Shown: positions 2 to 63,084 of the stretch, piece by piece
How the letters are laid out: each line of letters opens with the position of its first letter
How positions within the stretch are numbered: position 1 is the stretch's first letter
Virus record (IMG/VR): IMGVR_UViG_3300045974_000167
Span: 19,560-83,559 of that record
Source: a virus
DNA: 64,000 bases
Reading direction: 5' to 3' (one strand)
Position numbers and translations under genes: made by a program
The notes under the pieces: generated by a model
Seen by the model: only the letters and a program-made list of their open reading frames with translations
Database searches by the model: none
Told to the model about the DNA's origin: nothing

Positions 2-2131
2 AATGCCGGGATTGAACTAACCGGGGGAAATAGCCCTACGCTGGGTAGCGCCTATGCCGCCGCCAGTCTCTCTAACTGGGGCGAAGTCATTCTCCGCACA
101 ACCGCACCAGCAGGAGCAGCACTTGCTCAATTCATGCTCCGTGTATCCAGCCATAGTTCTGGTACATGGCAGGTAGATAACGCTTATCTATACCTAGCGG
201 ATCAATCCTCGCTTTCTACCGCCGATAGAAACGCGCTGGATAGTATGGCGGCGGCGCTAGATGACAGCAAGCTTTCTTCCTTAGAGAAAGCCTCCATTGT
301 CCCCGCGTATAAGTCGATGCTGCGGGCGTATTTCGGTACATCTGGGTCTAACGGACTAGCGTATACGGCAGGTCAGTACGCGGCCCCGCATACAATCGCC
401 ACCACCAGCTACACCTCCGCTATCACCACTCTTAAGGCAACTCTAGAGGGGTACGGTCTTAAGTTCGGAACAGTTAATACTGTTGTATGGGACTCCGGAC
501 CCTCCACCGAAGTAGCTTGGACGGCGGATCCCACCCCCACCACCGTCGATGGGCCTGCGCTGCGGGCGCAGTACACCTCTGCCCTTCTGGAAGAGTCGGC
601 ACTTCGGCAATCGATTGCAGACGCGGAGCGCCTAACCCGCCTAGACCTTGCTGGGACTATTACGCAGGTCGGCGGGGACGGGTACCTAACTCCTAGCGAG
701 CGCCGCACAATGCGGTTGATTTACCAGAACACGGTATCTCAGGGTACGGTAATCCTAACTAGGATTGTAACTGAGCTTGACCCCAAGAGTATCCCCTGCG
801 ATCACTCCGCGTATGATTCCGCTTTAACAGCACTAACCACGTATTTGAATGGGTTATCCCCGGATCTACGTGTAGATCCCGCCACTCTTACCGCGCCGCA
901 GCAGGTTGCTAATACTCCTATCACTGATAGGGCCGCGTGGTATAACGCATGGAAGGCATTCCTAGACGGGTTCACGCTGTTACAGACCAACTTCACCAAG
1001 GCGGCGCAGGATACTGCAAATTCTGCCATGGATATTTTATCCGCGATTGGATCGGATAATATCCTGTCTAAAGGTGCAGAAAAACAAGCACTAATTCAGA
1101 TATACCGTGCGGCGCAGAAAGACTATTCTGCGGCGTATTCCATACACCAGAAGTTATCCCCTAATCAATCTTGGGGTGTAAATCTTACAACGGATACCGG
1201 GCCAATGTGCTGGCACACCCCCGCCGGGGATGCTACGCACTGGTTCTATGCCCTAACCCGTATGACCTCCGCTAACCCACAAACCCCGGTGGTTGGTGGT
1301 AGCGCGTATTGGTATGATCTAGGGGTAGCTATTGATAACTCCGTATCCGGTACTCCAGCAGGGGCGTATAATTTATTCAACGTAGCGGGGGCAGACCTCG
1401 TTTCTTACATCGGCAGCACTTTAGGGCTATCAGATCCTCTAGTAGTATGGCCCGCAGGTACGTACGTGCCTGGAAACGAAGCCACCTGGATTACGTATGA
1501 CACCCCGATAGATGGGGCCTTATTACGGCAGAAGTTTGCCACGTTCTATTCTGCACAGGCTAATTTTGAGGCTAGTGTAGATACTATAAAGACTAGCATT
1601 CGTGCGGCGCAGGCTAAGTCCGGTGGTTTAGTCCTCGCTAGTGCATCTAGGTTAGGGTCTGTTAGGGTTGGCAGCGGACTAACAATCGATTCTAACGGGA
1701 TTCTAAGTGCGTTAGGTGGCGGCGGTGGGGGCGGTGACGCTACTACCTTAGGTTCCAAGTACCCGGATGTTTCCGCTACCGCCGATACGATTGCACAGCG
1801 CGATCTAAACGGGTGGTTGTTTGCGGTAGATGTTTCTACTTCGTCTGACGCCCGCCTAAAGTACGATGTAGCATCCATCAAGGGCGCGCTTGATAAGGTG
1901 CTTGCGATGCGCGGCGTGACCTTCACCCGTGTAGGTGACACCCGTAAACAGATGGGGGTTATTGCCCAGGAGATGGAAGAGGTTGCTCCCGAGGTTGTTC
2001 ATACTGACGATGAGGGCATGAAATCTGTTACGTATGGTAACCTTGTAGGGGTGTTGATTGAGGCTGTGAAGGAACAGCAGGCAACCATCGTGCAACTGAT
2101 TGCACAGGTTGATGCCCTGACCAAGAACTAG
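2..2131 (+). CDS. Tail fibre/tailspike with C-terminal intramolecular chaperone (peptidase S74-like); 5'-truncated by the window edge
   Basis: Frame is open from position 2. C-terminus has SSDARLKYDV...GVIAQEMEEVAPEVV...YGNLVGVLIEAVKE, the S74 chaperone signature. Three internal D-x-x-L-S/T-x-x-E-K/R repeats and a poly-Gly linker. Confidence 0.88.
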   Translation, partial: NAGIELTGGNSPTLGSAYAAASLSNWGEVILRTTAPAGAALAQFMLRVSSHSSGTWQVDNAYLYLADQSSLSTADRNALDSMAAALDDSKLSSLEKASIVPAYKSMLRAYFGTSGSNGLAYTAGQYAAPHTIATTSYTSAITTLKATLEGYGLKFGTVNTVVWDSGPSTEVAWTADPTPTTVDGPALRAQYTSALLEESALRQSIADAERLTRLDLAGTITQVGGDGYLTPSERRTMRLIYQNTVSQGTVILTRIVTELDPKSIPCDHSAYDSALTALTTYLNGLSPDLRVDPATLTAPQQVANTPITDRAAWYNAWKAFLDGFTLLQTNFTKAAQDTANSAMDILSAIGSDNILSKGAEKQALIQIYRAAQKDYSAAYSIHQKLSPNQSWGVNLTTDTGPMCWHTPAGDATHWFYALTRMTSANPQTPVVGGSAYWYDLGVAIDNSVSGTPAGAYNLFNVAGADLVSYIGSTLGLSDPLVVWPAGTYVPGNEATWITYDTPIDGALLRQKFATFYSAQANFEASVDTIKTSIRAAQAKSGGLVLASASRLGSVRVGSGLTIDSNGILSALGGGGGGGDATTLGSKYPDVSATADTIAQRDLNGWLFAVDVSTSSDARLKYDVASIKGALDKVLAMRGVTFTRVGDTRKQMGVIAQEMEEVAPEVVHTDDEGMKSVTYGNLVGVLIEAVKEQQATIVQLIAQVDALTKN

Positions 2132-2133
2132 CC

Positions 2134-2613
2134 ATGGCACTTCCCGCATCAGGAATACTGAAACTCTCAGATATTATTGCTGAATTCGGTGGGCCGGGGA
2201 ATCTGCGGGCGTATCTGTACGGTGGGACATATGTAACCGTCGCGGACTACGCCCCTAACGTACCGTCCAGCGGGAACATTACCCTTCGTAATTTCTTGGA
2301 CGCGGCAAAGGCAGGAAACCGACTATCCGTAGTCGCTAATCCCAACTACATTGATGGCTTTGGCGTCGGTATATCTGCCCAGAACGTGAACACCGGAGGA
2401 ACTACAATAAGCTCTGACGGCACCGGCCCATTCACGTACGCATGGTCTGTACTCTCCGGTGGAGGGACTATTATCGGGACCGGGGCCGGGGTGTACGTAC
2501 GGGAAAGATTACCATTGTGGGGCATGGATTCAGGACAGATCCAATGCGTAGTTACGGACTCTACCGGGCGTACTGGATCTGCCATAATAGACTACTACCT
2601 AGATAACTCCTAA
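2134..2613 (+). CDS. Tail fibre-associated/adhesin protein
   Basis: N-terminus MALPASGILKLSDIIAEFGG is typical of small proteins that follow S74 tail fibres; Gly/Thr-rich Ig-like C-terminus. Confidence 0.65.
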   Translation: MALPASGILKLSDIIAEFGGPGNLRAYLYGGTYVTVADYAPNVPSSGNITLRNFLDAAKAGNRLSVVANPNYIDGFGVGISAQNVNTGGTTISSDGTGPFTYAWSVLSGGGTIIGTGAGVYVRERLPLWGMDSGQIQCVVTDSTGRTGSAIIDYYLDNS

Positions 2614-2628
2614 CCTTTTGAATTCTCG

Positions 2629-2676
2629 GCGGGGCGGGGACCGGGTAACACCGGCCTTGACCCCGCTATTTTTTTG
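2629..2676 (+). terminator. Intrinsic terminator
   Basis: GCGGGG...CCCCGC stem with an inner CCGG/CCGG stem, followed by TATTTTTTT. Confidence 0.7.
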
Positions 2677-2761
2677 CCCATAAGTAACTGACTGCGATCA
2701 ATTGCAGGAAAATACCCCCCCGGGGGGTTGCTAGAACCCACAGTTAATGTAGTATGAGGGG

Positions 2762-3124
2762 ATGCTATTATTCAAGCCTGGGGTAGACCTCAATAATTTG
2801 AAGCCTCAGGCGGCGGCTGCTATGACTGTAGCTGCTGGTGTATTTGATTTTTACCGGTCCCACTGCATGGTCACCTCCGTAGGGGACAGCAAGCACGGAA
2901 TTGACTCACTGCATTATAAAGGTCTTGCATTTGATTGCAGACTTGCCTCCCGGTACAACTCGACACTTCAGGGAGTAGACGCCGCCGTCGTAGCTAAACT
3001 TAAGGAGTCTCTGACGGCCCAGTACGATGTTGTTCTTGAGGGTGAGGATACCCCGGGGGCCTCAGGTGCTCACATCCATATTGAGTATGATCCGCTCCAC
3101 GACGGTAAGCCCGTTATTGTCTGA
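2762..3124 (+). CDS. Endolysin, M15-like Zn peptidase
   Basis: SLHYKGLAFD and HIHIEYD zinc-ligand motifs (H-x6-D, HxH). Confidence 0.75.
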   Translation: MLLFKPGVDLNNLKPQAAAAMTVAAGVFDFYRSHCMVTSVGDSKHGIDSLHYKGLAFDCRLASRYNSTLQGVDAAVVAKLKESLTAQYDVVLEGEDTPGASGAHIHIEYDPLHDGKPVIV

Positions 3125-5191: not shown

Positions 5192-5285
5192 CCGATTGCA
5201 ATCGATTGCAAAGAATGAGAAGATGACCTCGTGGACTAGGTTTGGGCCTGCGGCCCGCATTGATTTTTAATAACAGGAGATACAC

Positions 5286-6704: not shown

Positions 6705-8285
6705 ATGGCTCAGGCGTTCCAGACCGACTTCGTACAGTCGGACGCCTTTGAGGCCGCTGCTCCTTCGGGTGCGCTTGATGGAAGCATCGTTGCGCCTACT
6801 AGTACCGTAACCGGATCTCTTTCCGTAGTAAAAGCACTAACCGGTACGGTTGCGGCGCAGGTTTCTACTGTTTCCGGGTCATTATCTGTAGTAAAGACCC
6901 TCACCGGTACTGTAGCTGCTCAAGTCTCTACTGTAACTGGTGATCTAACTGCTTTTGGTAGTCTAACAGGGGCCGTCGCCGCCGTAACAAGCACGGTTAC
7001 CGGCGATTTATCTGTAGTAAAGACCCTTCAGGGCGCGGTTGTCGCCCCCGCGTCTACTGTCTCCGGAGAGCTAGCTAAAACCGCAGCCCTTGCTGGTGCA
7101 ATCAATTGCACAAGTACGGTGGTCGGCGGTATCTCCCTAGCGGTCAATCTCACCGGTACTGTAACTGGGATCCCTTCAACCGTTTCCGGTACTGTCTCCC
7201 AGGTTGTAAACCTAGCGGGCGCTGTACCCGGGATTACTTCTACCGTAACTGGGTCCGTCAATAAGACGGATACTCTAACCGGTGTAATCGCCGCCCAGGT
7301 AAGTACGGTCGCAGGTGACTTGACCGTCATTTCTTTGACGGCACTAACCGGCAGTATCGCCGCCCCCGCATCAACCGTTACCGGTGAGTTAGCAGTAACT
7401 AAGACTCTCTCCGGGGCGGTTGTCTCTGCTGCCTCAACTGTAGCGGGGTCCATAACTAAGGTCGCCACTCTTACAGGGGCGGTGCCCGCAGTTACGTCCG
7501 TTGTATCCGGGTCACTTGCCTTAGTTAAGGCGTTATCCGGCGCTATTAGTGCCATCACCAGTACCGTTACCGGTTCCCTAACCTCGGTAGGGGACACTCA
7601 ACTAAGCGGAACAATCGCCGCTATTCCCAGTATTGTTACTGGTGATCTAGGCGTAAGTAAGAACCTGACCGGTAGTGTCCCGGCCCAGGTATCTATCGTT
7701 ACCGGTAAACTGACCATCGACCTGCACGGGGCTATAGGCATTGCCCCTTCGGTTGTTACCGGTGAACTGACGGTAGGAAAGAGTCTGTCGGGATCGATCA
7801 TTTCCCCGGCATCTATCGTTAGTGGCGATCTCTATAAGGTAGTCACGTTAGTCGGCAGCATCCCGGGGCAAGTATCTGTTGTCTCCGGTGAACTACTGTC
7901 CTCGTCCACCCTTACTGGGTCAGTATACGGAACTGCCACCGTCGCCGCTGAATTATCGAAGCGGGTTAACCTAGATGGCTTCGTTCTTTGCCCCAGTAGC
8001 GATGTTGCTGGGGAGCTAACTTACGTCGTCAATCTATCCGGCAACGTCGTAGCCCTAGCCACCCTGCTGGGTGAATTGTACGTATCCCAACCGGGCGTTA
8101 GTGTCTCAATCGATATTGGGAAACGTGTCTTAACTATTTACGGGCTGGGGCCGATAGCGGTAGTTAAGACGATATTCCCTACCGCTGACATCAATACTAT
8201 GCGGCCCGCCCACAAGATTTATGCCGCCGAACCCGTGGCAACATGGGTAGTTACTGGCGCTAAGAACAAAACTTTCGTATCATAG
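6705..8285 (+). CDS. Repeat-rich virion fibre/surface protein
   Basis: About 20 tandem ~20-21 aa repeats (LxGxV/IxAxxSxVxGxL), very rich in Ser/Thr/Val/Gly. Confidence 0.65.
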   Translation: MAQAFQTDFVQSDAFEAAAPSGALDGSIVAPTSTVTGSLSVVKALTGTVAAQVSTVSGSLSVVKTLTGTVAAQVSTVTGDLTAFGSLTGAVAAVTSTVTGDLSVVKTLQGAVVAPASTVSGELAKTAALAGAINCTSTVVGGISLAVNLTGTVTGIPSTVSGTVSQVVNLAGAVPGITSTVTGSVNKTDTLTGVIAAQVSTVAGDLTVISLTALTGSIAAPASTVTGELAVTKTLSGAVVSAASTVAGSITKVATLTGAVPAVTSVVSGSLALVKALSGAISAITSTVTGSLTSVGDTQLSGTIAAIPSIVTGDLGVSKNLTGSVPAQVSIVTGKLTIDLHGAIGIAPSVVTGELTVGKSLSGSIISPASIVSGDLYKVVTLVGSIPGQVSVVSGELLSSSTLTGSVYGTATVAAELSKRVNLDGFVLCPSSDVAGELTYVVNLSGNVVALATLLGELYVSQPGVSVSIDIGKRVLTIYGLGPIAVVKTIFPTADINTMRPAHKIYAAEPVATWVVTGAKNKTFVS

Positions 8286-9142: not shown

Positions 9143-10351
9143 GTGCGCTTGTTTGACCTAGCTTTCAAGGCTCGTCTGCCCATTATCGGTGTGCAGACGG
9201 ATGATACCGCTAACTTCGATAAGGTACTCGCGTTTTACGCGGCCCCTAAGAAGGTGGCTTCTCTTGCGGAGAAGCACAAGACGCTAGGTCCGTACCTCTA
9301 CTGGACTGATGATGAGGATCTGGTTACCACGGATACCTACGAGGAATTCCGCGCCGCAGGATTGTCGCTAATAGTCCTTAATTTCGATACTTCCCGCAAG
9401 AATCCACTGATTTTCGACGGAGGCATCCTCCCGACCCCGGATCCTTTAGTCAGGTATCTTCTATCTGATATGCTAGGGGAAGAATGGGTAGAGCCAATCA
9501 TCCCAGGTCTTCGCGGCCTGTCTCTGAAATCCATTAGGGAAGTCCTACTACTTACCCAAGCACGAGTTAATGGAATTACCCTCGCTGAGATCCGGCGCAC
9601 TAGGTCGTCCCTCGTGGGTGGGGCTACCGGACTCTATCTTGAGGATTCTAGCTATGACTTTTACCAGTGGCCGGAACATCTTAGGGCGTGGTTGGAGCTT
9701 AATAAGTCGTATTTTCACAAGGAAACGCACCACAAGCTTGTACCAAGGGGACTTATGTTTAACGGACCTCCCGGTGTGGGGAAGTCCATGGCGGCTAAGG
9801 CCATCGCAAATACGTTTGGTGTACCGCTATACCGATTCGATATCTCAAGCACTCTCGACAAATACATCGGAGTCTCCGAGGGTCGAGTTCAGAACGTTCT
9901 TGATCTCGTCAACCGAGAAGCCCCCTGTGTTCTTCTCCTAGACGAAGTAGAGAAAATCTTCCAGGGTAAGGAGGATTCGGGGGTAATCAATCGACTGTTA
10001 TCTAAGTTACTGTGGTGGCTTGCAGAACATCAGAGCCGGGTGTTCACGGTTATGACCACTAATGATAAGAGTTCGATCCCTCCCGAGTTGTACCGGACAG
10101 GCCGCATCGATAAGGTGATGCCTATCTCCAAGTTGACGTTCAATGAATCCCGTAAGTTTGCGGCGCAGGTGTTCGAGAGTATCCTAGAGATGAAGCCCGC
10201 TCTAGGACAAGTCCCGACGATTACGAAGGCTCTGCAATCGATTGCGCCCGCAGACTATCATCCTGACTTTCCCCTACTAGCCCACGCCGATGTAACGGAG
10301 GTAGTCGTTAACGAAATTAAAAAGCACGGTTGGGACGTTCCCAAAAAATAA
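9143..10351 (+). CDS. AAA+ ATPase (Ycf46-like)
   Basis: Walker A GPPGVGKS, Walker B LLLDEVEK, SRH TTN...PPELYRTGRID. Confidence 0.9.
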   Translation: MRLFDLAFKARLPIIGVQTDDTANFDKVLAFYAAPKKVASLAEKHKTLGPYLYWTDDEDLVTTDTYEEFRAAGLSLIVLNFDTSRKNPLIFDGGILPTPDPLVRYLLSDMLGEEWVEPIIPGLRGLSLKSIREVLLLTQARVNGITLAEIRRTRSSLVGGATGLYLEDSSYDFYQWPEHLRAWLELNKSYFHKETHHKLVPRGLMFNGPPGVGKSMAAKAIANTFGVPLYRFDISSTLDKYIGVSEGRVQNVLDLVNREAPCVLLLDEVEKIFQGKEDSGVINRLLSKLLWWLAEHQSRVFTVMTTNDKSSIPPELYRTGRIDKVMPISKLTFNESRKFAAQVFESILEMKPALGQVPTITKALQSIAPADYHPDFPLLAHADVTEVVVNEIKKHGWDVPKK

Positions 10352-11143: not shown

Positions 11144-12154
11144 ATGCCCGAAAACGTGATAGTCGTTAAGCCTGTGTATAAACAGATCACGGGCAGCATG
11201 AATTCTGCGGCGCTCCTAGCTCAAATAATTTATTGGCATACCCCCGGCGCTACCGGCGCGACTAAGCTGCGCGTAAAACGCGATGGGGAATTGTGGCTCG
11301 TTAAATCGTGGAAGGATTGGGAAACCGAAATCGGCCTTTCCCGAATGCAGAGCCGTGTAGCTCTTGACAAACTGCGGGCATTGGGGCTTATATTCACCCA
11401 AGTCCACAAGTTTAACAGCACGCCAACGACGTACATCAAGCTCCGGGTAGACATGCTTGATGCGGCCATCGAAAAGGTCAATGATTCCGCCGAAAAGTTA
11501 CCGGTAACCAATCACGGAATGGTTACCAAGGGCCAATCCGATTGGTTACCGGTAACCAATCTTATAACAGAGACTACTAAACAAGAGACTACACATGACA
11601 CTTTGTCCGCAAAATCAGAGAATGTCAAAGAAGCAGTAGAGAAGGAAAATATGGCAACATTAGAAGAGACATTAAAATTTAAGAAAGAACAGGCTGAAAA
11701 AGTTTTAGCGGGAACGAATCCGGCGAAACTCGCTCTACGCTGGAAGAAGCGACTAGCCAAGACATATGGCGGTTATGTGAAAGATTTGACCGGTGCCGAA
11801 ATGGGACAGCTCGGTCTACTCGCTAAGATGATGGGGCCTACGGACACGGCTAAGTACATCGAAAAGACCGTGGATCTCGCGGCTACGAACTGGGAGGAGT
11901 ATGTATTTGAGGTCAGGGCCAAGTACGGGTTAACCACGACACCCGAAAGACCCGTTGTAGGTTTCCTACTGAAGTACCATGATGTTGCTATTCAGATGTT
12001 GCAATCGAGTGCAAAACAGGTTAAGCCTCAGAATGTAACTCCGTTGAAGGCGGAATCTGTTGCCGCGCCTCAAGAAGTGACTAAGACTAAGGTTGACGTA
12101 GCTTCTAAACAAATGGTCGCGGAGGCCCTCGCAAAACTGAAGCAACAGAAATGA
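11144..12154 (+). CDS. Replication initiator / replisome organiser (winged-HTH)
   Basis: AALLAQIIYW...WLVKSWKDWETEIGLS...ALDKLRALGLI and ITETTKQETT linker, typical of phage O-like initiators; upstream of DnaC-like and DnaB genes. Confidence 0.75.
   Translation: MPENVIVVKPVYKQITGSMNSAALLAQIIYWHTPGATGATKLRVKRDGELWLVKSWKDWETEIGLSRMQSRVALDKLRALGLIFTQVHKFNSTPTTYIKLRVDMLDAAIEKVNDSAEKLPVTNHGMVTKGQSDWLPVTNLITETTKQETTHDTLSAKSENVKEAVEKENMATLEETLKFKKEQAEKVLAGTNPAKLALRWKKRLAKTYGGYVKDLTGAEMGQLGLLAKMMGPTDTAKYIEKTVDLAATNWEEYVFEVRAKYGLTTTPERPVVGFLLKYHDVAIQMLQSSAKQVKPQNVTPLKAESVAAPQEVTKTKVDVASKQMVAEALAKLKQQK
11499..11562. repeat. Candidate iterons inside the initiator gene
   Basis: GTTACCGGTAACCAATC occurs twice (~11497 and ~11545), with GGTTACC between; the core is palindromic. 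Confidence 0.5.
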
Positions 12155-14991: not shown

Positions 14992-15051
14992 TGCGGGCCG
15001 GTTGTGCCGGGGGAGTCTGCACTTGATTGCAGGCTCCCCTAATCTTTTCGT

Positions 15052-15968: not shown

Positions 15969-16177
15969 TGGAAGTCTCGGGGATAGAGGTTTGTAAACAG
16001 AGAACCCCGACCGCCGATAGGCCCATAGCGTTCCATTGCTACCATCTCCAGCCCTGGTCAGCATCCTCTAACTGCCAAACAGAGATATGTTGCCATTGCG
16101 GGAATACTAGGACCGTAAACCACGGGTCGTTCAAGCCAGCATCGATATTAGGTATCATCTAGTCTGCAATCAATTGC

Positions 16178-17161
16178 ATGAAAAAAGAACTAGTCCTTAA
16201 CCTGATGAAGTCGTTAGGTATGCACGATCCCCTCCCCGTGAACGGGTGGTGGATGGCGCAATGCCCGCTGGCACCTTTTACCCACTCCAAGGGAAAGGAC
16301 ACGCGGCCATCGTTCGGAATGAACATGGAATCCGCTAACTATAACTGCTTTACCTGCGGCAGCGGGAGTGCCACGAAACTTGTGATGTCCCTGGATCTAT
16401 ACTCCAAGGACGACCCAATCCTTTCGGCGCGGTACCACTTCAAGCAAGCTTACGAAGTTCTACAGGGTATAGAGGACTACCTAGAGCCTTTACCCGAGTT
16501 CGGTGCTATAACCCCGAACATGCTAGAGTTTACTCCGTGGCCCGAATGGTGGCTTGAACAGTATCAACCGTGGCATCAGAGCACGACCGCCAAGTGGTAT
16601 CTACATGAGGGGCGTCCTGCGGCGGGCAGTCAGGGAATCCCGGCTGAGATAGCCATCCAGTTCGAGCTACGATACGATTACAAGTACAATCGAATCGTAT
16701 GCCCTTACCGTACCTATACAGGTAAGTTGGCGGGGGCCAGAGGTAGAGCGTGCGATCCAAACGCCACGCTCAAGCACTTCGATTACACCCACGACAAGAT
16801 CAATAATGCTCATGGGGTCTGGTACAACGAACAAGCATTGGAACTTGCGGCCCGCCACCATAAACCCGTAATCGTCGTAGAGGGCCAGTTCGACTGCATG
16901 AGTGTCGCCCGGATTTATCCCTACGTAGTGGCGGGCTTAACTGCCAAGTCTAGCGCCGAAAAGATCACTAAACTGCAAGGTTGTGATGGTGTTGTGACGA
17001 TGCTGGATAATGATGAGACAGGGGAATCGGCCCACATCCGGTACGAAACCCTGCTCCGGAAGCATGTTCCAATTGGGCGTGTTTCGTATCCAAAAGAGTA
17101 CAAAGACCCCGGTTCCCTGCCTCTCGAAGTGCTAGAAAAAGTGCTATCCGATCTTATTTAA
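16178..17161 (+). CDS. DNA primase (Zn finger + TOPRIM)
   Basis: CP...H...D.RPSF...NCFTCG; VVEGQFD; MLDNDETG; YKDPG. Confidence 0.9.
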   Translation: MKKELVLNLMKSLGMHDPLPVNGWWMAQCPLAPFTHSKGKDTRPSFGMNMESANYNCFTCGSGSATKLVMSLDLYSKDDPILSARYHFKQAYEVLQGIEDYLEPLPEFGAITPNMLEFTPWPEWWLEQYQPWHQSTTAKWYLHEGRPAAGSQGIPAEIAIQFELRYDYKYNRIVCPYRTYTGKLAGARGRACDPNATLKHFDYTHDKINNAHGVWYNEQALELAARHHKPVIVVEGQFDCMSVARIYPYVVAGLTAKSSAEKITKLQGCDGVVTMLDNDETGESAHIRYETLLRKHVPIGRVSYPKEYKDPGSLPLEVLEKVLSDLI

Positions 17162-18112: not shown

Positions 18113-18283
18113 ATGCCCTTGTACGTTTACGAATGCGAGAAATGCAATCTTGAGGTTGAAGTGCTTGAGAAGGTGAAGCACTATGCACCTGATTGCAAAC
18201 GCTGCGGTAGAGAGATGAAGAAGAAGATTGTTGCTTCTGCGGCCAAGGCGTTTCCAGGCGCTGCATCTTGGAGAAACGATTGA
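18113..18283 (+). CDS. FmdB-family zinc ribbon protein (absent from the ORF track)
   Basis: MPLYVYECEKC...PDCKRCG.EMKK; ATGGAG RBS. Confidence 0.75.
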   Translation: MPLYVYECEKCNLEVEVLEKVKHYAPDCKRCGREMKKKIVASAAKAFPGAASWRND

Positions 18284-19575
18284 TCAATCTGACTGAAATC
18301 CCGTTATGGACGGACGCTATGGCTGTCTATCCATACTCGGAAGGTATGGAGGCGGCGTTCACGTTTGTCTCTACCTACGGTGATGAAGTCAAGATGGCTG
18401 TGCGTAGCGGCAACCATATCCTTGTGCCCCGCCGTGTCGCCCCATTGGGTGGGCATGACAAACGGGTGAGTCGGCCGCTTCCTGCAATCGATTGCAAGAT
18501 GCCGCCTCTGGATGTGGAACAGGCTGGGTGTATTTCTTCCTCGCTGAAACTTCTACAGAACGGGGTTGACCACGTTCTAGAGGCCCCTACCGGGTTCGGC
18601 AAGACCTATATCGGTTCGGCAATCGCGGCGCGACTAGGACAAGCGACCCTGATTGTGGTCCCTAAACAGGACTTGATGGATTCTTGGTACAAGACCCTGA
18701 TCAATCTTGTGGGAGTAACCCCGGATGATATCGGAATCGCCCAAGGCGCTAAACTCGACTACAAAGGCAAACGATTCGTACTCGGCATGGTACAAAGTAT
18801 CATCCGACCCGGCAAGTATGAAGAAGATTTCTACCGATCTTTTGGATTGGTTATCTTCGACGAAACGCATCGTATGGCTGCGGAATGTTTCTCCCGAGCC
18901 TGCATGTTGTTTCCTGGTATGCATAGACTCGGACTTTCCGCCACTCCTAAAAGAAATGATGGAAAAACACCTGTCATTAGTGCCCATATCGGGCCTGTCC
19001 TCGTTAGAGGTGTCACCGTCCCCATGAGCCCGAAAATCCTCGTAGAGAGCACCGGTTGCGGGCTCCCTTCGTGGATGGACAACATCGACCCCGGTAGGAT
19101 GATGGCTGCCTACGGGGCGTTGTCCAAGAATACCCAACGTAACGAAAAGATCGTAGGTTTCACCAAGAATGCCTACGGCAAGGGTCGGACTATAGTGCTC
19201 ATGTCAGACCTCATTTCACACCTAAATCTCCTTAGCAACATGCTGATCCAGGCGGGCATCCCTCCCACGGATATCGGGATGTATACCGGCGAGGTTCAGC
19301 GTGTCCTGCTCAAGCCCAACGCCAACAAGCGGGTAATCCTCGCCACCTATGGAATGTGCTCCGAGGGCACAGACTATCCGCATTGGGATACCCTGATCAT
19401 GGTAACCCCCCGCGCTAACATCAAACAGCCGTTAGGGCGTATTCTACGTAAGAAGGCTGGCAAACCCACCCCCGTTGCCCTCGACCTAGTTGATAGCGGG
19501 CGCATCTTCAAGGGCTTCTACTACAAACGCTTGAAGCAATACCATGAGGTAGGAAGCGAGGTCGTTCAGCTATGA
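18268..19575 (+). CDS. SF2 DExH helicase (UvsW/ResIII-like)
   Basis: APTGFGKT, IFDETH, GLSATP.R.DG, SEGTD.P, QPLGRILR. Confidence 0.9.
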   Translation: MEKRLINLTEIPLWTDAMAVYPYSEGMEAAFTFVSTYGDEVKMAVRSGNHILVPRRVAPLGGHDKRVSRPLPAIDCKMPPLDVEQAGCISSSLKLLQNGVDHVLEAPTGFGKTYIGSAIAARLGQATLIVVPKQDLMDSWYKTLINLVGVTPDDIGIAQGAKLDYKGKRFVLGMVQSIIRPGKYEEDFYRSFGLVIFDETHRMAAECFSRACMLFPGMHRLGLSATPKRNDGKTPVISAHIGPVLVRGVTVPMSPKILVESTGCGLPSWMDNIDPGRMMAAYGALSKNTQRNEKIVGFTKNAYGKGRTIVLMSDLISHLNLLSNMLIQAGIPPTDIGMYTGEVQRVLLKPNANKRVILATYGMCSEGTDYPHWDTLIMVTPRANIKQPLGRILRKKAGKPTPVALDLVDSGRIFKGFYYKRLKQYHEVGSEVVQL

Positions 19576-20019: not shown

Positions 20020-20490
20020 ATGGCTATCAATATGAAGCCCCCTGCGGGGATTCCGCAGGTGAAATCGGTTGCAAAGTACGACGAACATTTAGCCAAGGCT
20101 GCCACAGAAGAAGAGGCACTAACGGCTAAGGCAATGGCGGCAATCAACCTTCCCAACGAATTCATCCAGCATCTAAAGTCCCCGTCCTCCACCGGTACGG
20201 TGAAGGTTGATCACCTCAAGACTGACTACGGGAAGAAGACCGTAACCCCTGTGGAGGAAACCACTGAGTCGATGGTTGCCCCGCCCATTCCGCTCGATAA
20301 GCTGCACAATCTGGCGGTTGCGGGAAAGATGACTATCAATCTTGGTAACTACGAATCTGCCCAGATCATGGTGTCTCTCACGGTTCCATGCACCAAGGAA
20401 ACCCTAGAGGACGCCTATGCCTACGCCTCTGATTGGGTGTCCGACAAGATCGAGTCTGCTGTTGCCAAGGCGAAGAAGGGTAACTCCTAA
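20020..20490 (+). CDS. Hypothetical phage protein
   Basis: TINLGNYESA motif, common in phage replication regions. Confidence 0.6.
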   Translation: MAINMKPPAGIPQVKSVAKYDEHLAKAATEEEALTAKAMAAINLPNEFIQHLKSPSSTGTVKVDHLKTDYGKKTVTPVEETTESMVAPPIPLDKLHNLAVAGKMTINLGNYESAQIMVSLTVPCTKETLEDAYAYASDWVSDKIESAVAKAKKGNS

Positions 20491-26016: not shown

Positions 26017-26035
26017 GTGCAACTGATTGCAGGAT

Positions 26036-38961: not shown

Positions 38962-39079
38962 CTGCAACTGATTGCAGGACGGACGCCCCAAAATGTAGGG
39001 GTGTCCGTCTTTCGTTTTGCAGAACGTTGTGCGATGCTCACCATCTCACGACGCCCGCACACCCATGGAGGGATTATTA

Positions 39080-39881: not shown

Positions 39882-40279
39882 TGAACCTAGGATTCACCGG
39901 TACCCGTGAAGGGATGAGCCAACGGCAGAAACTTGCCCTTGGGGAACTCCTTGACGGTAGATACAGTATGAACATCGGTGACTTCCATCACGGGGACTGT
40001 CAAGGCGCGGATACCCAGGCGCACTTGATTGCAAAATCCCGGGGATGGAACATCATCATCCACCCGCCCGACCAGACCTACGCCAGAGCATACAACACAG
40101 GGTTCTCCTCCATTCGTATGCCCATGCCGTTCCTGGCTAGAAACCACAACATTGTCGATGAATGTAGTGCATTAATCGCGGCCCCGCGAACCGAGAAGGA
40201 AGAGTTAAGAAGTGGTACATGGGCCACCATCCGCTATGCTTGGAAACAGGGCAAGACCGTCGTAATCCTCAACCCGTAG
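39881..40279 (+). CDS. SLOG/DprA(YspA)-like nucleotide-binding protein
   Basis: GFTGTR, HHGDCQGAD, LARNHNIVD, SGTWATIRYA...GK.V. Confidence 0.75.
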   Translation: MNLGFTGTREGMSQRQKLALGELLDGRYSMNIGDFHHGDCQGADTQAHLIAKSRGWNIIIHPPDQTYARAYNTGFSSIRMPMPFLARNHNIVDECSALIAAPRTEKEELRSGTWATIRYAWKQGKTVVILNP

Positions 40280-42848: not shown

Positions 42849-42900
42849 GTTGCAATCGATTGCAGATGTAGGTTAATAGTAGTCAAACCGGTGAGAACAT

Positions 42901-45087: not shown

Positions 45088-45129
45088 CGCAACTGATTGC
45101 AAACCATAGAAACATGCTGTATTGTCAAA

Positions 45130-45540: not shown

Positions 45541-45609
45541 GATTGAAACTGATTGCAACCCGCAGAACGATGCGGTAACGTCAAACTATCGACGGTCCAT
45601 GGAGGGATT

Positions 45610-46536: not shown

Positions 46537-46758
46537 TGGGGATGGCATCAGGGGATGCTGTTGCTCTTGCCATCTATAGCGCCGCCGACCGGTGCGGAAT
46601 GACCAAGAATGAAGCGCATGATCTTGTTAACCACGTTCTACGTAGTCGTAGGTCTGAGTTTCCTCCGGGGTTTATGCCGTAGATGAAATCGGTTGCACTC
46701 TGTAGAAACATACCGTATTGTCAAATCATTGCGGCGGTAACAACCCATGGAGGGAACG

Positions 46759-47961: not shown

Positions 47962-48062
47962 CCTGCAATCGATTGCAAAGATGATTGTGCTTGTCAAACG
48001 TAGAATCATGTGCGACCATGCACCATCAACGACGCACCAACGGTCCATGGAGGGACTAACCG

Positions 48063-50435: not shown

Positions 50436-50867
50436 AGACCTACCAAGTGACCCTCGACATCAACACTAATGAAGTAGAGCCGCCGCAGAATTGGGATTGG
50501 GTAACCCTGCTCGATCTAGACGTAGCCAAGGGTGAGGGGGTAGACGTTGCAGATGTGCAACTGATTGCAGACGATAGTGACTGCCCAGGAGAAGGGACGA
50601 ACGAGTAACGACGCCCCAAATGTTCCGCACACGTTTGCAGGATGTTCTGACATCATGCATCAATGACGACGCGGAAACACCCCCTGGAGGCCAAAATGCC
50701 GGTGCCGACCGTTGAGGAAACGAAGTCTGGTACGAAGGTTGTTCCCTTCTTCTGCTGCCCCATGGTGACGCTCACGATGTTGAGCGGGCGACCCCTGGCG
50801 CACACGGATGCGTGCCCGAACAACCCCAAGAACAAGCGGTAACTCGCTGCACCCCATGGAGGGACAC

Positions 50868-52561: not shown

Positions 52562-52806
52562 TACGAGATTATGGGGAGCTGGCAGGAGAGAACTAGAAAG
52601 GCTAGTGCAACTGATTGCAGTGAGTAAGGGCGGCGGCAGTAAGGAAGGGTGAAAATGCAGCACAAACGACCCTTCTGATACGTTGTAACGCACAGAATGT
52701 TGTGCGACCATGCATCATCGGTTGACGCGGAAACTGCCGGGGGGTACGGATTGGCCGTAATCCAACGGTATTGACCGAGAGCTTGACCGACCAATGGAGT
52801 GACACA

Positions 52807-53467: not shown

Positions 53468-53803
53468 GGCTAGTTAGCAGGTGAGATAGACTAGAAATTC
53501 CCGGCCCGCGTCACCCCGTTAAGCTAGTAGACCATTATTGATACGAGGCTCGTACAAGCACGCAAAAACCCTACCCGCTACCCCCCCACCACCCCGACCC
53601 GCCAAAGGTCACCATGAGGCTCCTGCGCGTTCTAATAGGAATCCTAATTGCCCCCTCTGACCTCACTTCCGACCTAGAGCGTTTCTGCAATCGTGTGCAA
53701 AGTATAGGGGGCAGTACGCACGCCCCAAATGTTCCCACCCACCCCACAGAATGCCCTGCTACGGTTGACCATCAACGCCGTATTCAACCAATGGAGTGAC
53801 CCA

Positions 53804-55920
53804 ATGGCGAACAAGATGAATCACCGGCACGGCGGCGGCAGGCGGAACGAGGGAAAGTCGGAAGTCGATCTTCGCTTCCTCCTTCGTCCCGAGCCCCTGG
53901 CACTCGATCAGATCACCGAGGGTCTGGACGACGCCTTCATCGATTCCGAGATGTTCGACACCGGATGCTGCGCGGAGTGCGAGGACATGGCCCGCCGCTA
54001 CTCCACCGACAACAACGAGGGATGAAATGAACGAGCACGAGACTCCAGCACATGCACCACACACGGACGGACAGCTAGTGAGGTGCCCCAAGTGCAAGGG
54101 TCTGAGCACCGTGCAGGGTACGCACATCAGAACGTACTGCTGTTGCAGCAAGTCGCCGCCAGAGGGCAGTCTCATGGTACCCTACAACCGAACCCCCATC
54201 CGGAGGAAGTAAATGCACGGACGAGAGATGTGCGAACGCCACGAACCCGACATGAGGAAGTGTCGGTTCTGCACGGATTTCACCAAGGAACCGTGCTACA
54301 AGCCCAAGCTCATTGATCCTCCAAAGGACAAGACCAATGGACGACCCTAAGTACATCTACATCGACACCCATGAGGCAGGCCCAGACTTCTTCATCTTCC
54401 CTAACTGGTACGACCACAAGCGGGTGGCTGAGTTTGTGGGCGGGGAAGTGCTGAGTGCTGGATTCGTGTGTTTCAACGTGCCCAAGCCATTCTGTCATGG
54501 GAAGTCTACTTCTCTGAACGTCGGAGCTACCGAGTTCGCCACGAAATACTTGAGGAAGAGGTACGGGATCAACGAGGACTAACACCCCAAAATCCTGCAC
54601 ACGATTGCAGAACGGCGTGTTACCTTGACCATACGGCAATGACGCCGTGGGAAACGGAGAGACAATGGCACGGTACTTCATCGACCACAAGACGGGGCTG
54701 ATCACGGAGATCACCCTGGACGACATCGCCCCCGCCGGTCCCTGGCAACTCGCGGCCTGCGAAATGCGGGAAGTCCAGGCCCTCAGGAACGACGAGTTCT
54801 GCCTGACCGACCAGGGTGTGCTCCTCCGTGACGACGCGGGACAGATCATCGACGGGCTCCACATCGTCCTCAACCGCTACGGGGTTGGGACGACCTACGG
54901 ATACCCCGAAGAGAACCTCATCGAGTTCTTCAACTAGTACGAGATTCCAGCGCATTACGCGCATACGACCCACTAGCTAGGGAGGCAACAGTGCTGAGAA
55001 TCGACTTCGCAGAGCGTTGTGCATGGCGAGCCATGTACCTCTCGTACACCAAACACGACAAGTCCGGATACAAGTGGCAGCACCAGTTCTTCCACATCGG
55101 ATTCGACCCCAACCAGAATAGCGGGAGGCCGCAGATTTTCGGCGGCGCGTGGGGGCTGGCCTGGAGATTCAATATCCCCCACATCCGTTGGAACATGAAG
55201 ATGAACAGCATCACACGCTTCCTCTACCGCTGGCAAAGCAACATCCTGTTCCGCCTCGACGGACGCTTCAAGTGCTGGCCTGGGCAGACCCCCCGCCCCT
55301 AAATCCCGCAAACGATTGCAAGACGGTCTTAGACCGCCCTGTTACTGTGACTGTGCCGCAACCACGCGGCACCAACGGAGGCACAGACATGAGCAACTAC
55401 TGCGTCGAAACCTACCACGCCAGGCTGTCCGACTCGGTGATCACGGACATGGACGGAGACACGGCAGAGGAACTGAACGACGAAACGCTCGCCTACGCGA
55501 ACGAGCTGTTTGAGGCAGCCAAGGCGAACTGCCCGCCCGACGAATACTGCGAGGTTTGGGTTGCCCGCTTCCGGCCCAACCTGCCCGCCCAGCCTGTCTA
55601 CATCTTCACCTCCCTGGTGCATTAGACCGGGGATCGACGCCCCAAACGTCTGCACACGATTGCAGACCGCCGTGTTACGGTGACTCTGCCGCACTTGCGG
55701 CCACCAACGCTGGAGACACGCAATGGACACCATCACGCTGACCCGGCACGAAGCTGACCATGTGGTTGCGGCCCTCGCCACCCTGCACGCCATCTTGGGG
55801 AAGAACTACGAAACCGGCCACCCCAACGCCGAAGAGGACAGGAAGTGGGTGGCGGGCATCCTCCAGAACTTCAACGAGAAACTCGGAAACACCACCGTTT
55901 CCTGGCTGAACATCGAGTAA
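53804..55920 (+). other. Small putative early CDSs (53804-54025, 54027-54212, 54337-54582, 54666-54937, 54991-55302, 55389-55625, 55723-55920)
   Basis: Repeated promoter-RBS-ORF cassettes (-10 at 53760, 54621, 55343, 55676). Confidence 0.55.
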
Positions 55921-56510: not shown

Positions 56511-57201
56511 ATCGAGATTCACACCCGCCCGCCCCCCTATGCTTGCACAGATAGGGGGCTTTTCACGTTAGTATCTAGCAAAAATCGGCGGCGGCGTCTG
56601 GTCCCCTTAGTATAGAAGATATAGAGGACAATAGGAGGGCTAATAGGGATACTAAAACTAGGGAAGCAATAGGTGGAATAGACCTGTAATCTCGATCACT
56701 TAGGTCTACCCTTTAGACAGTCCAGAATCTCCATAAATCCACCCAATCTAGCTAAAAAGCTGCCTCTTGCTCACTCAAAATCCTAAAAAGTCGAGACAAG
56801 ATTGGGTCGGGCACGAGACTATGGCGAGCTAGCGAGCACAGACAGAAAGATAGATCGAGACTCTAGCAAGCAGGCTGGAATAGATAGATAGACGAGCAAG
56901 TGGGAGGGCAGCAAGGCAAGAAAGGTAAGAAAGGCAAGACTGGGCTTGGCTCTCCCTCCCTATAGGAGATTGCGCTCTGAAAAGTTGAGAAAGTGTAGTT
57001 AGCGTTCAGACCCCTTGTTTTTAGTAGTGTAGAAAACACGATTTAGTAGCAAGACTGCTCCAACCATGCGCCGCCGATTCTCTACTCGTGCAGAAAGACG
57101 AGAGTGGTTGGAATGAACTACCCAAATGTTCTGCAATCAATTGCAGAACGCCCTGCTATGCTCCTTCCATGACGTACCACCCAAACGACGGAGACACTTC
57201 A

Positions 57202-57508: not shown

Positions 57509-57579
57509 CATGATCCACAAGTACGGCTGTTAAGCAAAATGCCCTCGCCCACCGTGGCGGGCTTTTCTGCAACTGATTG

Positions 57580-57851
57580 CAGACAGCACGAGACTCTAGG
57601 TGGCTGGGAGGAAAGAAAGATAGGAAGGCTGGTACCCAGTACGAGACTATGGCTAGCTGGGTAGGAGTAGCAAGAAAGATAGAAGGAGCAGCAAAGCAAG
57701 ACAAGAAAGGAAAGCAAGAAAGAAGTAGAAAGACTGGAAAGACGAGAAAGAAAGACAGCAGGAGAAAGACGAGAGTGAGATCGAGACTATGGCTGGGTAG
57801 GTAGGTGAGCATAGCGAGGTAAGGCAGGCTGGGCGAGCGAGGCTGGACAAG
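57580..57851 (+). repeat. AG-saturated purine tract with CGAGACT(A/C)T repeats
   Basis: For example AGAAGTAGAAAGACTGGAAAGACGAGAAAGAAAGACAGCAGGAGAAAGACGAGAGTGAGA; ends abruptly at 57851. Confidence 0.8.
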
Positions 57852-58343
57852 ACCGTTTTTTCAAAATCGACCGACCTGCTCTGTCTACTTTGCGTCGGCA
57901 CGCCTTTTTCCCGTGCCAAAACGAACGCCCCTTTCCGTGTCGTGTGCGTTCGGTACGTGTCCCGTGTCTTTTGCCCCACCCAACATGACCCATCTGTTTT
58001 CATGCACTTACCTCGTTTCTTGCGTGTACCATGCGTCTTTTGCCCCAACCATGCCCCACCCCCCCGCGCCCCTTGACGTTCCAACATGTTGAAATCACTG
58101 CAAACGATTGCGCCCGTGTTTCGGCACGGTCGCTGCAATGACTCCGGAATGTCGTTGTTGAATCTTCGGTCCCGCCGCTGAAAATCGGACCTGCGAACGA
58201 CCGACCCGGCCCCCGGCAATCGACCCGAAACCCGAAAAAACGTTCTCGGAACGTGCCTTTGCGGTGTTTCGGCATACCCCAACGGATCGACCGTTGAACC
58301 TTGAACGGCGACCGAAACCCGTTGTATCCATACGGAAAATCAA

Positions 58344-61313: not shown

Positions 61314-61921
61314 CGGTACAAGTAGTCATTCCTACGAGGGGAAATCCCCGCGTAGAGACTGTTGCCTCTATTGAAAATATTTGCAGGGGCAAGACCCCCC
61401 CGCACTACGTAGGGGGCTCGATGGGTGCAGCAGAGACAAAGAGTCGGATTGTTCAATGGTTTCTGCTAAAGACGAATGCCTCGCACTTAATCATCTTAGA
61501 TGATGACGTTATTCCTCCAACGAATTTCTTGAGTCTCGCAGAACGGGGAGTTGAGATAGTAGCAGGAGCAGTACCACTATTCGGTGCTCACTCCGCAAGG
61601 GTTCCGTTCGATGCTGTTTATAGGAGAAATGCCGCTGGAACCTATATTCCCGTAGAAGCCGGATTAACTGGAATGCATGAAGTAGACGCAGTAGGAGGAG
61701 CTTCTATCTGTATTGCTCGCCACGTTCTGGTAGATGTGCGGCCCGCCTTTACCGATGTGTACGACGAAGACGGAAGGGCGGTTATCAGTGAGGACTTCCA
61801 TTTCTGTCAGCTAGCCAAGGCGAAGGGATATAAAATCTGGGCCGACTTCGATGTCCGGTGTGAACACGTTAAGCAAATGCCGTTGTCGGACATGGCGATG
61901 CGCGTGCGAGCGAACCCGTGA
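61310..61921 (+). CDS. GT-A fold glycosyltransferase 3 (paralogue of 60690)
   Basis: VVIPTRGNPR.E, ILDDDV, EVDAVGGA, SEDFHFCQLAKAKGYKIWADFDVRCEH. Confidence 0.8.
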   Translation: MTVQVVIPTRGNPRVETVASIENICRGKTPPHYVGGSMGAAETKSRIVQWFLLKTNASHLIILDDDVIPPTNFLSLAERGVEIVAGAVPLFGAHSARVPFDAVYRRNAAGTYIPVEAGLTGMHEVDAVGGASICIARHVLVDVRPAFTDVYDEDGRAVISEDFHFCQLAKAKGYKIWADFDVRCEHVKQMPLSDMAMRVRANP

Positions 61922-62259
61922 GTGATTGCTCTATTCCTTGTACCGGTCGATGTTGTGAGATGTTGGCACTACCGTTTCTCATGGAGGAATACAAACAATC
62001 TTATGAGAACTGGCTGGCGGGTCGGCCCCACCTAAAAGATATCTGGATTATCTACCCGATGCTGAAACCGCCACCAGAGAAACTCTATAAAGAACTTCTC
62101 GATACAGTCGGAGGCGATCCATATAAGCTTGTCTCCTTCCACTACGGATGCAAGCACTTAACAGAGGATAAGAAGTGTAGCATCTACGATGCTAGACCTC
62201 AGATGTGCAGGACGTTCCCAGATGATCATCCTTGCCAGTTTTGCGGAGTAACAGCATGA
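61918..62259 (+). CDS. YkgJ-family Fe-S/Zn Cys-cluster protein
   Basis: CTGRCC...CKHL....CSIYDARPQMCRTFP. Confidence 0.8.
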   Translation: MSDCSIPCTGRCCEMLALPFLMEEYKQSYENWLAGRPHLKDIWIIYPMLKPPPEKLYKELLDTVGGDPYKLVSFHYGCKHLTEDKKCSIYDARPQMCRTFPDDHPCQFCGVTA

Positions 62260-62353
62260 AGAAGGCTCTGATTTACGCGGCGTGGTTTCTGGCGGGATTC
62301 TTCATCGGGCCTATCCTTGCCTATTTCGGAATTATGAGTCTCTGGAGGCCGTA

Positions 62354-63084
62354 ATGACATTAGGAAAAAATCTTGGAACGGTCGGCGGGCACAACTGGTA
62401 CCGTCTACCGTCCAAGTTCGTAGAACGGTTGTGGTGTACCCGCTGCGGGTGTCTTGCCGAGGGCGACTTGCTCTGGGCAATGAATCTGAAGTTAACCCGC
62501 TGGGATTGGCAGTTCACACTACCCGGGAATCCTGTAAAGGTGATTAAGAGTTCCGAGGATGTTCCTAAATGCCCCAACGGTGTTGGGTACAACCAGACCA
62601 CGCTCATGCGGGAGCAGGGACTACAGAAACTAGAGCGTCAGGCCAAGGGAGAAATCGAATGATTGAAAAGAACACCATCAATTTCTGCGGAAGGCCCTTG
62701 CTCGATTGGGAACCCGGCGACGAACAGTTCAAGAAGATTTTGAAGATTACGTATGATAAGGGCTGCGAACATTACATCGCCAAGCCCAGCGATACTATTA
62801 TCTTCCTAATGCGGAAGGTGAAGGAACTTGGCAATCAATTGCACGACGTAGAGGCTACCCCTATGTCGGAGTGGGCGGCTACTCTCGCGGCTGCGAAGGA
62901 GAACGTGGAGGGAACGGCGGCTTTGTTACATGAGGCCGAGAAGCGTATTGCGAAACTGGAGGCGATGATTCCGCAGTATGCACCGGAACCTCCAACGCAT
63001 TGCCATTGTCCCCGTAGCGTTCCTCTAACGCAAGATCAGAAACGATGCTCTTGGTGTTGGTTACCTCGTAAGGAAAAGACCTAA
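62354..63084 (+). other. Two hypothetical CDSs (~62354-62662, 62659-63084)
   Basis: GGAGG RBS and ATGA coupling. Confidence 0.5.

Follow-up and report, generated by a model that had tools for sequence, protein, structure and literature searches.

In this work, we analysed an array of short palindromes in a 64,000-nucleotide stretch of phage DNA (hereafter the window). The window comprises bases 19560–83559 of the IMG/VR contig IMGVR_UViG_3300045974_000167 (hereafter G000), which is 83,559 bp long and has a CheckV completeness estimate of 87%. The palindrome, TGCA-N6-TGCA, has the full 16-bp consensus CTGCAATCGATTGCAG in G000 and occurs there about once per 2 kb, genes included. The array is real and is under selection at the DNA level, and arrays of the same word are present in eight cultured phages from six bacterial genera. 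From the form and placement of the sites, and from the protein family that accompanies them, we infer that the palindrome is, on balance, probably a docking site on double-stranded DNA that is read by a dimer of the protein encoded at 24545–25330 (the 24545 protein), and that it would serve both promoter control and the silencing or organisation of the whole genome.

Occurrence of the palindrome in the window

The window contains 26 exact copies of TGCA-N6-TGCA, against 0.87 expected and a maximum of 5 in 100 dinucleotide shuffles; the full 83.5-kb contig contains 29. A position weight matrix trained on the exact sites identified approximately 43 sites in G000 with a score of at least 10, of which 38 are in the window, compared with about 1 in shuffled sequence. 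The original prediction, which was made from the letters of the window, described more than 30 copies with the cores ATCGAT, ACTGAT, ATCAAT and CACGAT. The cores are as it gave them, and the degenerate copies it placed at 606, 45088, 45544, 46684 and 62830 were all recovered by the weight matrix.

According to our own gene calls, which are based on open reading frames, nearly all the genes of G000 lie on the + strand. About 17 of the 38 window sites are within coding sequence, where they encode the peptides LQSIA, VQLIA and AIDC, in agreement with the earlier estimate of roughly half; the remaining sites are intergenic, many of them 0–5 nt past a stop codon. Comparison with a codon-preserving shuffle and statistics on the spacing had been proposed as checks, and both support the array. 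When codons were shuffled in a way that preserved every protein sequence and the codon usage of each gene (n = 200), coding sequence contained 0.83 exact sites (maximum 4) and 1.56 sites with up to two mismatches (maximum 5), whereas the observed numbers are 14 and 20, respectively. The coding sites are thus far in excess of the shuffle, and the word has therefore been written in by codon choice. The sites are also more evenly spaced than chance would give, the coefficient of variation of the gaps being 0.63 in this phage and 0.96 for random placement (P = 0.002).

The asymmetric variant TGCAACTGATTGCA, which has the ACTGAT core, occurs in G000 11 times on the + strand and never on the - strand; the asymmetric variants in general had been noticed to lie mostly in one orientation. 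The oriented copies include those at 2091, 23314, 26018, 27759, 38963, 50556, 52606 and 57568, all of which are in the coding-strand orientation. Only this variant of G000 is oriented: both site orientations are present in the Vibrio phage VH2_2019 (hereafter VH2) and in the Stenotrophomonas phage DLP5.

The same word in other phages and replicons

Close relatives were sought by DNA and through peptide patterns of TerL, but megablast found none and a related-locus search gave one weak match; relatives were reached through the motif itself and by tblastn. Searching IMG/VR for exact copies of the 16-mer identified several contigs with many copies, of which five, all distantly related, were taken for comparison: G001 (105 kb, 81% complete, 28 sites), G002 (38 kb), G003 (134 kb, complete with terminal repeats, 23 sites), G004 (48 kb, 38% GC, 55% complete) and G005 (85 kb). 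In all five, TGCAATCGATTGCA recurs every 2–9 kb with spacing more even than random. A module of replication and recombination genes is common to G000, G002, G003 and G005 at 25–33% identity, while G001 has structural genes in common with G003, and G004 has TerL and a few genes in common with the others. At TerL, the identity to cultured siphoviruses is about 50% (tblastn), and those siphoviruses bear the same arrays.

The cultured carriers are Stenotrophomonas phage DLP5 (35 sites, TGCAAT-CA/TG-ATTGCA), Vibrio phage VH2 (34 sites, TGCAATTAATTGCA / TGCAATTAACTGCA), Pseudomonas phage UF_RH6 (30 sites, TGCAARCGYTTGCA), Aeromonas phage HJ05 (16 sites, TGCAAC-YR-GTTGCA), the Rhodobacter phages RcTiptonus (29 sites, mostly the same word as in the window) and RcZahn (19 sites, TGCAATCAATTGCA, TGCAATCAACTGCA and TGCAATTAATTGCA), and the Rhizobium phages L338C (47 sites, TGCAACNNGTTGCA) and RHph_Y1_11 (17 sites, TGCAACAAATTGCA and others). 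The general form of the word across the carriers is TGCAAY-NN-RTTGCA. Even spacing was seen in all ten genomes tested, with coefficients of variation of 0.22–0.69 against about 0.9 for random placement; the spacing test gave values below 0.05 in nine of them and 0.08 in RcZahn. Some individual sites are conserved in position: the site in the helicase gene of the window (TGCAATCGATTGCA, 18483..18496, encoding AIDC) falls in the same alignment column in G000, G005 and DLP5, and a site in a WcaG-like gene is at the orthologous position in DLP5, RHph_Y1_11 and RcZahn. By comparison, six phages that are distantly related by their terminase (Maribacter Molly_4, Gordonia Hello, Streptomyces Yaboi, Acinetobacter Ab1-TPeters, Xanthomonas phiXF1 and Rhizobium TM40) have no array, with no copies or chance singletons.

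An array is also present in a 40-kb stretch of plasmid p7 of Rhizobium bangladeshense (16 sites, TGCAACNNGTTGCA). This plasmid (NZ_CP071625.1) is complete, circular and 109 kb long, and carries the phage replication module, a gene of the 24545 family and two adjacent ParB-N genes (see below). It is likely to be a resident phage-plasmid of the L338C type.

A host-wide repeat was considered and rejected. The exact 16-mer, searched against the genomes of 185,579 species, gave scattered matches that were nearly all single among the matches listed (one stretch had two), and five whole bacterial genomes contained 1–6 copies, equal to a control pattern and thus at chance level. We note a cluster of six TGCAATCGATTGCA-type sites within 11 kb of an aromatic-catabolism cluster of Paraburkholderia sp. 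GAS448 (115025–126002), located around the gene for a LacI-family regulator, with one site 138 bp upstream of that gene. The cluster contains no phage genes and no 24545 homologue; the idea that it is a prophage was rejected in favour of a LacI-regulated catabolic locus, where the same 14-mer probably serves as operator for a regulator of the LacI type. Operators of the LacI/GalR family follow the pattern TGnAAnCGnTTnCA, with which the word agrees. These two observations would suit a host protein, for example a LacI-family regulator, as the reader of the sites, with the phage copies serving as decoys or hijacking a host factor. We consider this very improbable, because the arms are constant across phages of Vibrio, Aeromonas, Pseudomonas, Stenotrophomonas, Rhodobacter and Rhizobium, the word is at chance level in bacterial genomes, and several lineages have TA, CA or any pair in place of the central CG, on which binding of the LacI type depends.

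Architecture of the site and its relation to promoters

The arms of the palindrome show no compensatory change across phages of 36–62% GC. The central pair is free, being CG in G000, CA/TG in DLP5, TA in the Vibrio phage and any pair in L338C, and arm position 6/9 switches between lineages as a symmetric pair (T/A, R/Y or C/G). The combination of fixed arms, a variable centre and a symmetric switch therefore points to the site of a dimeric protein on double-stranded DNA rather than to a hairpin. A search for residues covarying with the 6/9 switch among 12 sequences of the 24545 family gave no clean pattern.

In VH2, a site lies 8–13 bp upstream of the -35 box in 10 of the 17 strong TTGACAAAA promoters, among them the five that match sigma-70 best within a 20-kb stretch that was scanned. 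The promoters were identified by a scan for the -35 box only, as a strict -35/-10 pattern under-called them. Two of the ten promoter-linked sites, the two for which this was scanned, are located just downstream of an intrinsic terminator-like hairpin; the gap between hairpin and -35 box, which holds the site, is therefore probably not transcribed. The window shows parallels to this arrangement. The site TGCAACTGATTGCA at 26018..26031 (+), 1 nt past a stop codon, is followed after 4 bp by TTGACA-17-TAATCT; the intergenic site TGCACTTGATTGCA at 15018..15031 (+) is followed after 20 bp by the promoter-like TTGACA-17-TATCCT; and the site TGCAATCGATTGCA at 47964..47977, 2 nt past a stop codon, has a TTGTCA box 13 bp downstream. 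The original prediction had described the non-coding sites as lying right after stop codons or overlapping promoters. Its first part is borne out by these positions; the second needs correction, in that the sites sit just upstream of the -35 box.

We also considered whether the palindrome could function as a hairpin in RNA or single-stranded DNA, acting in termination, in processing or stability, or in priming. Many sites are indeed between genes, 1–35 nt past a stop codon and 11–25 nt ahead of the next start, one follows a tRNA-like 3' end, and the G000 variants are oriented with transcription. In G001 and G002, moreover, the stems extend by 3–12 variable pairs at 19 of 39 sites, where about 2% would be expected by chance, and some are then followed by T runs. 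Against this, half of the sites are inside genes, the invariant arms show no covariation, and most genomes have a stem of only 5 bp (5–8 bp with no T run in the window). G-T and A-C mismatches in the flanks are about equally frequent, so that the asymmetry between G-U and A-C mismatches, used as a test for RNA, showed no clear difference, and both VH2 promoter-linked sites in the scanned stretch are past a terminator-like hairpin with its T run. As for the features of an intrinsic terminator, the arms never covary, and extended stems, few of them with T runs, are confined to G001 and G002. A hairpin is accordingly an improbable explanation of the array as a whole. Many palindromes of G001 and G002 form the tip of a longer hairpin whose outer stem differs from site to site, and a few of these hairpins, with T runs, resemble intrinsic terminators; it may be that, where the intergenic gaps are very tight, the dyad was simply placed on top of terminators that were already there.

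The 24545 protein as candidate reader

The candidate reader is encoded at 24545..25330 on the + strand. It is 261 amino acids long and belongs to phrog_17202, with a weak match to DUF3102 and a predicted ParB/KorB-like helix-turn-helix. The original prediction had listed it among several proteins to be tested for binding; its conservation, its predicted fold, its co-occurrence with the array and the site upstream of its gene in most carriers now make it the best candidate.

The AlphaFold2 model of the protein has a mean predicted local distance difference test score (pLDDT) of 80.6. Residues 42–177, approximately, match the DNA-binding domains of the ParB family in VIA-align: 6s6h (ParB DNA-binding domain with parS, Z 7.8), 1vz0 (Spo0J, Z 7.6), 1r71 (KorB DNA-binding domain with operator, Z 6.6) and 8qa8 (Z 6.2), followed by SopB, VirB and P1 ParB. 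Foldseek gave probabilities of 0.5–0.9 but E values of about 1. We propose a ParB-like fold because the matches agree in family, and not because of the height of the scores. Comparison of the family with solved structures by sequence or profile gave nothing useful, and Pfam gave only the weak DUF3102 match, in two members. No match to PF02195 was found in the 24545 protein; the model is disordered N-terminal to the helical domain, and the longer homologues are likewise without a CTPase domain.

The family is 53–67% identical across many contigs of 90–115 kb, including DLP5, for which the identity of TerL is 53%. There are 50 cultured carriers of the family, and its members include DLP05_067 of DLP5, the VH2 gene at 6496–7485 and gene 82 of RcTiptonus. 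A profile of the family found members in each of the 13 array carriers for which enough sequence was available, and none in the six terminase relatives that have no array. Furthermore, in 11 of the 13 carriers the 200 bp upstream of the gene contain a site, whereas 20 other conserved gene families reach no more than 2 of 8 and the per-gene background is 6–29%. This is the signature of an autoregulated DNA-binding protein.

Several observations weigh against the proposal that a dimer of this protein reads the sites. The Z scores of 6–8 are in a range where helical domains can match by arrangement alone, and the RuBisCO factor Raf1 scores like the ParB-family matches. The 24545 family travels together with the whole replication module, so that its co-occurrence with the array is partly phylogenetic; G001 and G004, both incomplete contigs with arrays, have no detectable homologue, and no site precedes the gene in either G000 or G002. 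The lack of a CTPase domain means that sliding in the manner of KorB would require a partner. A symmetric dimer leaves the 11:0 orientation of TGCAACTGATTGCA unaccounted for, and the palindromes of G001 and G002 that are often extended outward hint at hairpin use in those two contigs.

Some of the same observations bear on another explanation, that the sites act at the DNA level through a different factor or process: as hot spots of recombination or replication (RecA, helicase or exonuclease), dispersed packaging signals, or nick sites. Even spacing and the presence of sites in long genes would suit coverage of the whole genome, the module common to the carriers is one of replication and recombination, and two array-bearing contigs are without the 24545 family. 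Headful packaging, which is known for the RcF phages and RcZahn (PMC8601537), would also fit. A Chi-like or primase signal would be expected to be short and one-stranded and not a dyad of 14–16 bp, however, and the near-fixed place upstream of the -35 box and of one particular gene indicates a binder linked to transcription. We therefore regard this explanation as unlikely, although of the alternatives to a protein of the ParB type it is the one to be taken most seriously.

The ParB-N protein and other proteins examined

The original prediction had proposed that the palindromes are loading sites for a different protein, the ParB-N protein encoded at 32526..33257 (+), which as a CTP-dependent sliding clamp would confine modification or packaging to phage DNA. 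This protein is a true ParB relative: it matches PF02195 with an E value of 3.6e-13, has the arginine box GEHRYRA, and matches ParB, Noc and KorB over about 140 residues in Foldseek (E 1.5e-8). Its gene is found in most array carriers, and the gene order glycosyltransferase, ParB-N, TerS-like, TerL is also that of DLP5. In UF_RH6 (record positions 60965–63429), a 449-amino-acid 24545-like gene is followed directly by two genes with ParB-N domains on the same strand, possibly forming an operon with it.

The protein was not found in G003, however, which is complete and has 23 sites, and it is therefore not needed for the array. In addition, none of the eight genomes examined has a site upstream of the ParB-N gene, its homologues are fewer and more divergent than those of the 24545 family, and the modification genes (MT-A70, WbqC and GT-B) are not common to all carriers. 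No link of the sites to modification or packaging was found. The clamp is thus unlikely, more so than the different factor or process considered above. What stands of the original prediction is probable docking by a candidate of the ParB type, while the 32526 protein as loader and the role in modification or packaging are not supported; its two alternatives, a stoperator-like repressor network and a nucleoid-organising site, come close to the reading we prefer. The ParB-N protein may act as a separate CTPase helper and is a possible partner of the 24545 protein.

A search for proteins common to all six metagenomic carriers by BLASTP, phmmer and iterated profiles found none. The complete carriers all have DnaB, a gp32-like single-stranded DNA-binding protein (17252), helicase, RecA-like protein, resolvases, exonuclease, TerL and two unknowns, one of which is the 24545 protein. 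The single-stranded DNA-binding protein was rejected as the reader: its His-Cys3 site and acidic tail show it to be gp32-like, and so not a sequence-specific reader. The product of 17252–18034 resembles T4 gp32, with a zinc site formed by H67, C80, C92 and C95 and an acidic C-terminal tail, and is conserved in eight genomes. A MerR-like regulator (19572) was rejected as well, being present in only three genomes. Open reading frames of at least 45 amino acids in G000, G003, DLP5 and VH2 were scanned for ParA-type ATPases (deviant Walker A, KGGxGK[ST]) by regular expression, not by profile, and none was found.

Comparison with known systems

The closest parallel is KorB, which has 12 OB operators on the IncP plasmid RK2 and represses from operators either 4 bp or 1.5 kb upstream of the -35 box (PMC11790492). 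The likeness lies in a short palindrome that is spread over the replicon, with some copies directly upstream of -35 boxes and others far from promoters, in a site preceding the regulator's own gene, and in a candidate reader predicted from its model to have a KorB/ParB-like DNA-binding domain. In contrast to RK2, the replicon here is a phage, there are 17–47 sites per roughly 100 kb rather than 12 per 60 kb, many of them inside genes, the candidate reader is without a CTPase domain, and no partner of the KorA or ParA/IncC type was identified.

ParB with parS, and Noc with its binding sites (NBS), resemble the present system in having a dyad of 14–16 bp in several copies per replicon, and both of our candidate proteins appear to have a ParB-type fold. 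Noc has about 70 dispersed sites. The parS sites are few and clustered near the origin, unlike the sites described here, and the scan described above found no open reading frame with a ParA-type Walker A motif. The helix-turn-helix protein and the ParB-N protein are moreover separate polypeptides here, unlike in ParB and Noc.

In Cluster A mycobacteriophages, the stoperators (L5 gp71) are 13-mers without symmetry, and the repressor that binds them is a monomer with a different fold. Like the present array, the stoperators are found as dozens of copies of one short site, mostly at gene boundaries and with one at the early promoter, throughout the genome of a temperate phage; of the sites described here, the TGCAACTGATTGCA copies of G000 are oriented with transcription, while both orientations occur in VH2 and DLP5. 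The sites described here differ in being dyads, with about half of the copies deep inside genes. Cluster O mycobacteriophages (the Corndog group) have 17-bp dyad repeats in more than 30 dispersed copies, for which we know of no established function and no proposed reader protein. There, as in our array, a palindrome recurs at many places in the genome of a siphovirus; the sequence and phage lineage are different, and a reader is proposed here.

Full-text literature searches for several forms of the word returned primers or nothing, and no phage paper, and the word is likewise absent from the DLP3 and Rhodobacter phage papers. We did not find a published description of a dispersed operator array in phages of the KorB, Noc or stoperator kind with a ParB-like candidate reader that consists of a helix-turn-helix domain only.

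Proposed mechanism

We propose that a dimer of the 24545 protein would dock on the dyads through its ParB/KorB-type helix-turn-helix. At sites directly upstream of a -35 box, the docked protein would modulate host RNA polymerase and so control early and middle promoters, including its own promoter in most relatives. The other, evenly spaced sites, including those in long genes, could give coverage of the whole genome for silencing or organising phage DNA, in the way that KorB acts over plasmid RK2 and Noc over the chromosome of Bacillus. This function would probably be most important in the plasmid-prophage state known for DLP5. DLP5 is temperate and persists as a phagemid, a state that the authors also suggest for DLP3 (PMC5834331, PMC7326821). 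A role in whole-genome silencing or organisation fits this lifestyle of the clade, as it does the presence of a 24545-family member on the 109-kb Rhizobium plasmid.

A more speculative extension, which we put forward only tentatively and as a good deal less probable than docking itself, is a 'split ParB', in which a 24545-family protein consisting only of a helix-turn-helix part would occupy the approximately 20–50 evenly spaced palindromes and act with the ParB-N protein, a CTPase encoded apart from it, to coat, silence or partition the whole genome in a large clade of plasmid-prophage siphoviruses of Proteobacteria. If true, this would be a chromosome-wide self-marking layer of a kind new for phages.

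If docking by the 24545 protein is correct, members of a widespread group of phages of 80–135 kb that infect Vibrio, Aeromonas, Pseudomonas, Stenotrophomonas, Rhodobacter and Rhizobium bear a genome-wide lattice of operators, a function could be assigned to the large and highly conserved 'hypothetical protein' family phrog_17202, and whole-replicon control of the KorB/Noc type would extend to phages from the plasmids and chromosomes where it is known. With eight members available in culture, the group would be a tractable model for asking how phage DNA is marked, silenced or organised by the phage itself. In metagenomes, the 14-mer also provides a simple sequence marker for the clade, with the caution that it is probably a LacI-type operator in one bacterium as well.

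Individual sites in the window

The remaining sites are given below with a strand where one was assigned. Within coding sequence are GGCAATCGATTGCA at 606..619 (encoding RQSIA), TGCAACTGATTGCA at 2091..2104 (+, encoding VQLIA, with the stop codon 27 nt further on), TGCATTTGATTGCA at 2926..2939 (+), TGCAATCAATTGCA at 7097..7110, TGCAATCGATTGCG at 10233..10246 (LQSIA) and TGCAATCGAGTGCA at 12000..12013, together with the degenerate sites TGAAATCGGTTGCA at 20060..20073, CGCACTTGATTGCA at 40020..40033 (+) and GGCAATCAATTGCA at 62830..62843. Sites in identified genes are TGCAATCGATTGCA in the exonuclease gene (22641..22654), TGCAACTGATTGCA in the RuvC gene (23314..23327, +) and in the MT-A70 gene (27759..27772, +), TGCAATCGGTTGCA in the WbqC-like gene (28710..28723) and TGCAATCGATTGCA in the glycosyltransferase gene (31656..31669). 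A small open reading frame contains TGCAACTGATTGCA at 50556..50569 (+, encoding VQLIAD).

Stop codons immediately precede TGCAATCAATTGCA at 36436..36449 and lie 5 nt before TGCAATCGATTGCA at 5197..5210, and TGCAACTGATTGCA at 38963..38976 (+) begins 1 nt past a stop. Intergenic sites are TGCGATCAATTGCA at 2693..2706, TGCACCTGATTGCA at 18184..18197 (+), which is upstream of the helicase gene, the degenerate TGAAACTGATTGCA at 45544..45557 (+), TGCAACTGATTGCA at 52606..52619 (+) and TGCAATCGTGTGCA at 53686..53699 (-), which is the CACGAT form reversed. The site TGCAATCAATTGCA at 16165..16178 directly adjoins the ATG of the primase gene, TGCAACTGATTGCA at 57568..57581 (+) is in a non-coding stretch, and the degenerate TGCAAACGATTGCG at 58099..58112 is downstream of a TTGACG box. 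The perfect palindrome TGCAATCGATTGCA at 42851..42864 starts 2 nt past the CCA end of a tRNA-like sequence, as read from the flank; within 42820–42864 the tRNA-like 3' end is GGTTCGATCCCGACAGGGGCTACCA, ending 2 nt short of the palindrome.

Two groups of sites are part of longer repeats. Between 45088 and 47990, three sites are followed by a common promoter-like block, 'tagaaacat..gtaTTGTCAaatcattg'. Such a TTGTCA block follows CGCAACTGATTGCA at 45088..45101 (+) and the degenerate TGAAATCGGTTGCA at 46684..46697, which is 1 nt past a stop codon. Between 50626 and 57145, six palindromes are embedded in a longer repeat of the form CGCCCCAAAnGTTC-[palindrome]-GAnCGCCnTGTTAC. The degenerate CGCACACGTTTGCA at 50626..50639 lies within the CGCCCCAAAnGTTC module, and TGCACACGATTGCA at 54596..54609 (+) and again at 55651..55664 (+), the degenerate CGCAAACGATTGCA at 55307..55320 (+) and TGCAATCAATTGCA at 57132..57145 are within the longer repeated module. 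This module may represent a second promoter or regulatory class belonging to the small-gene region.

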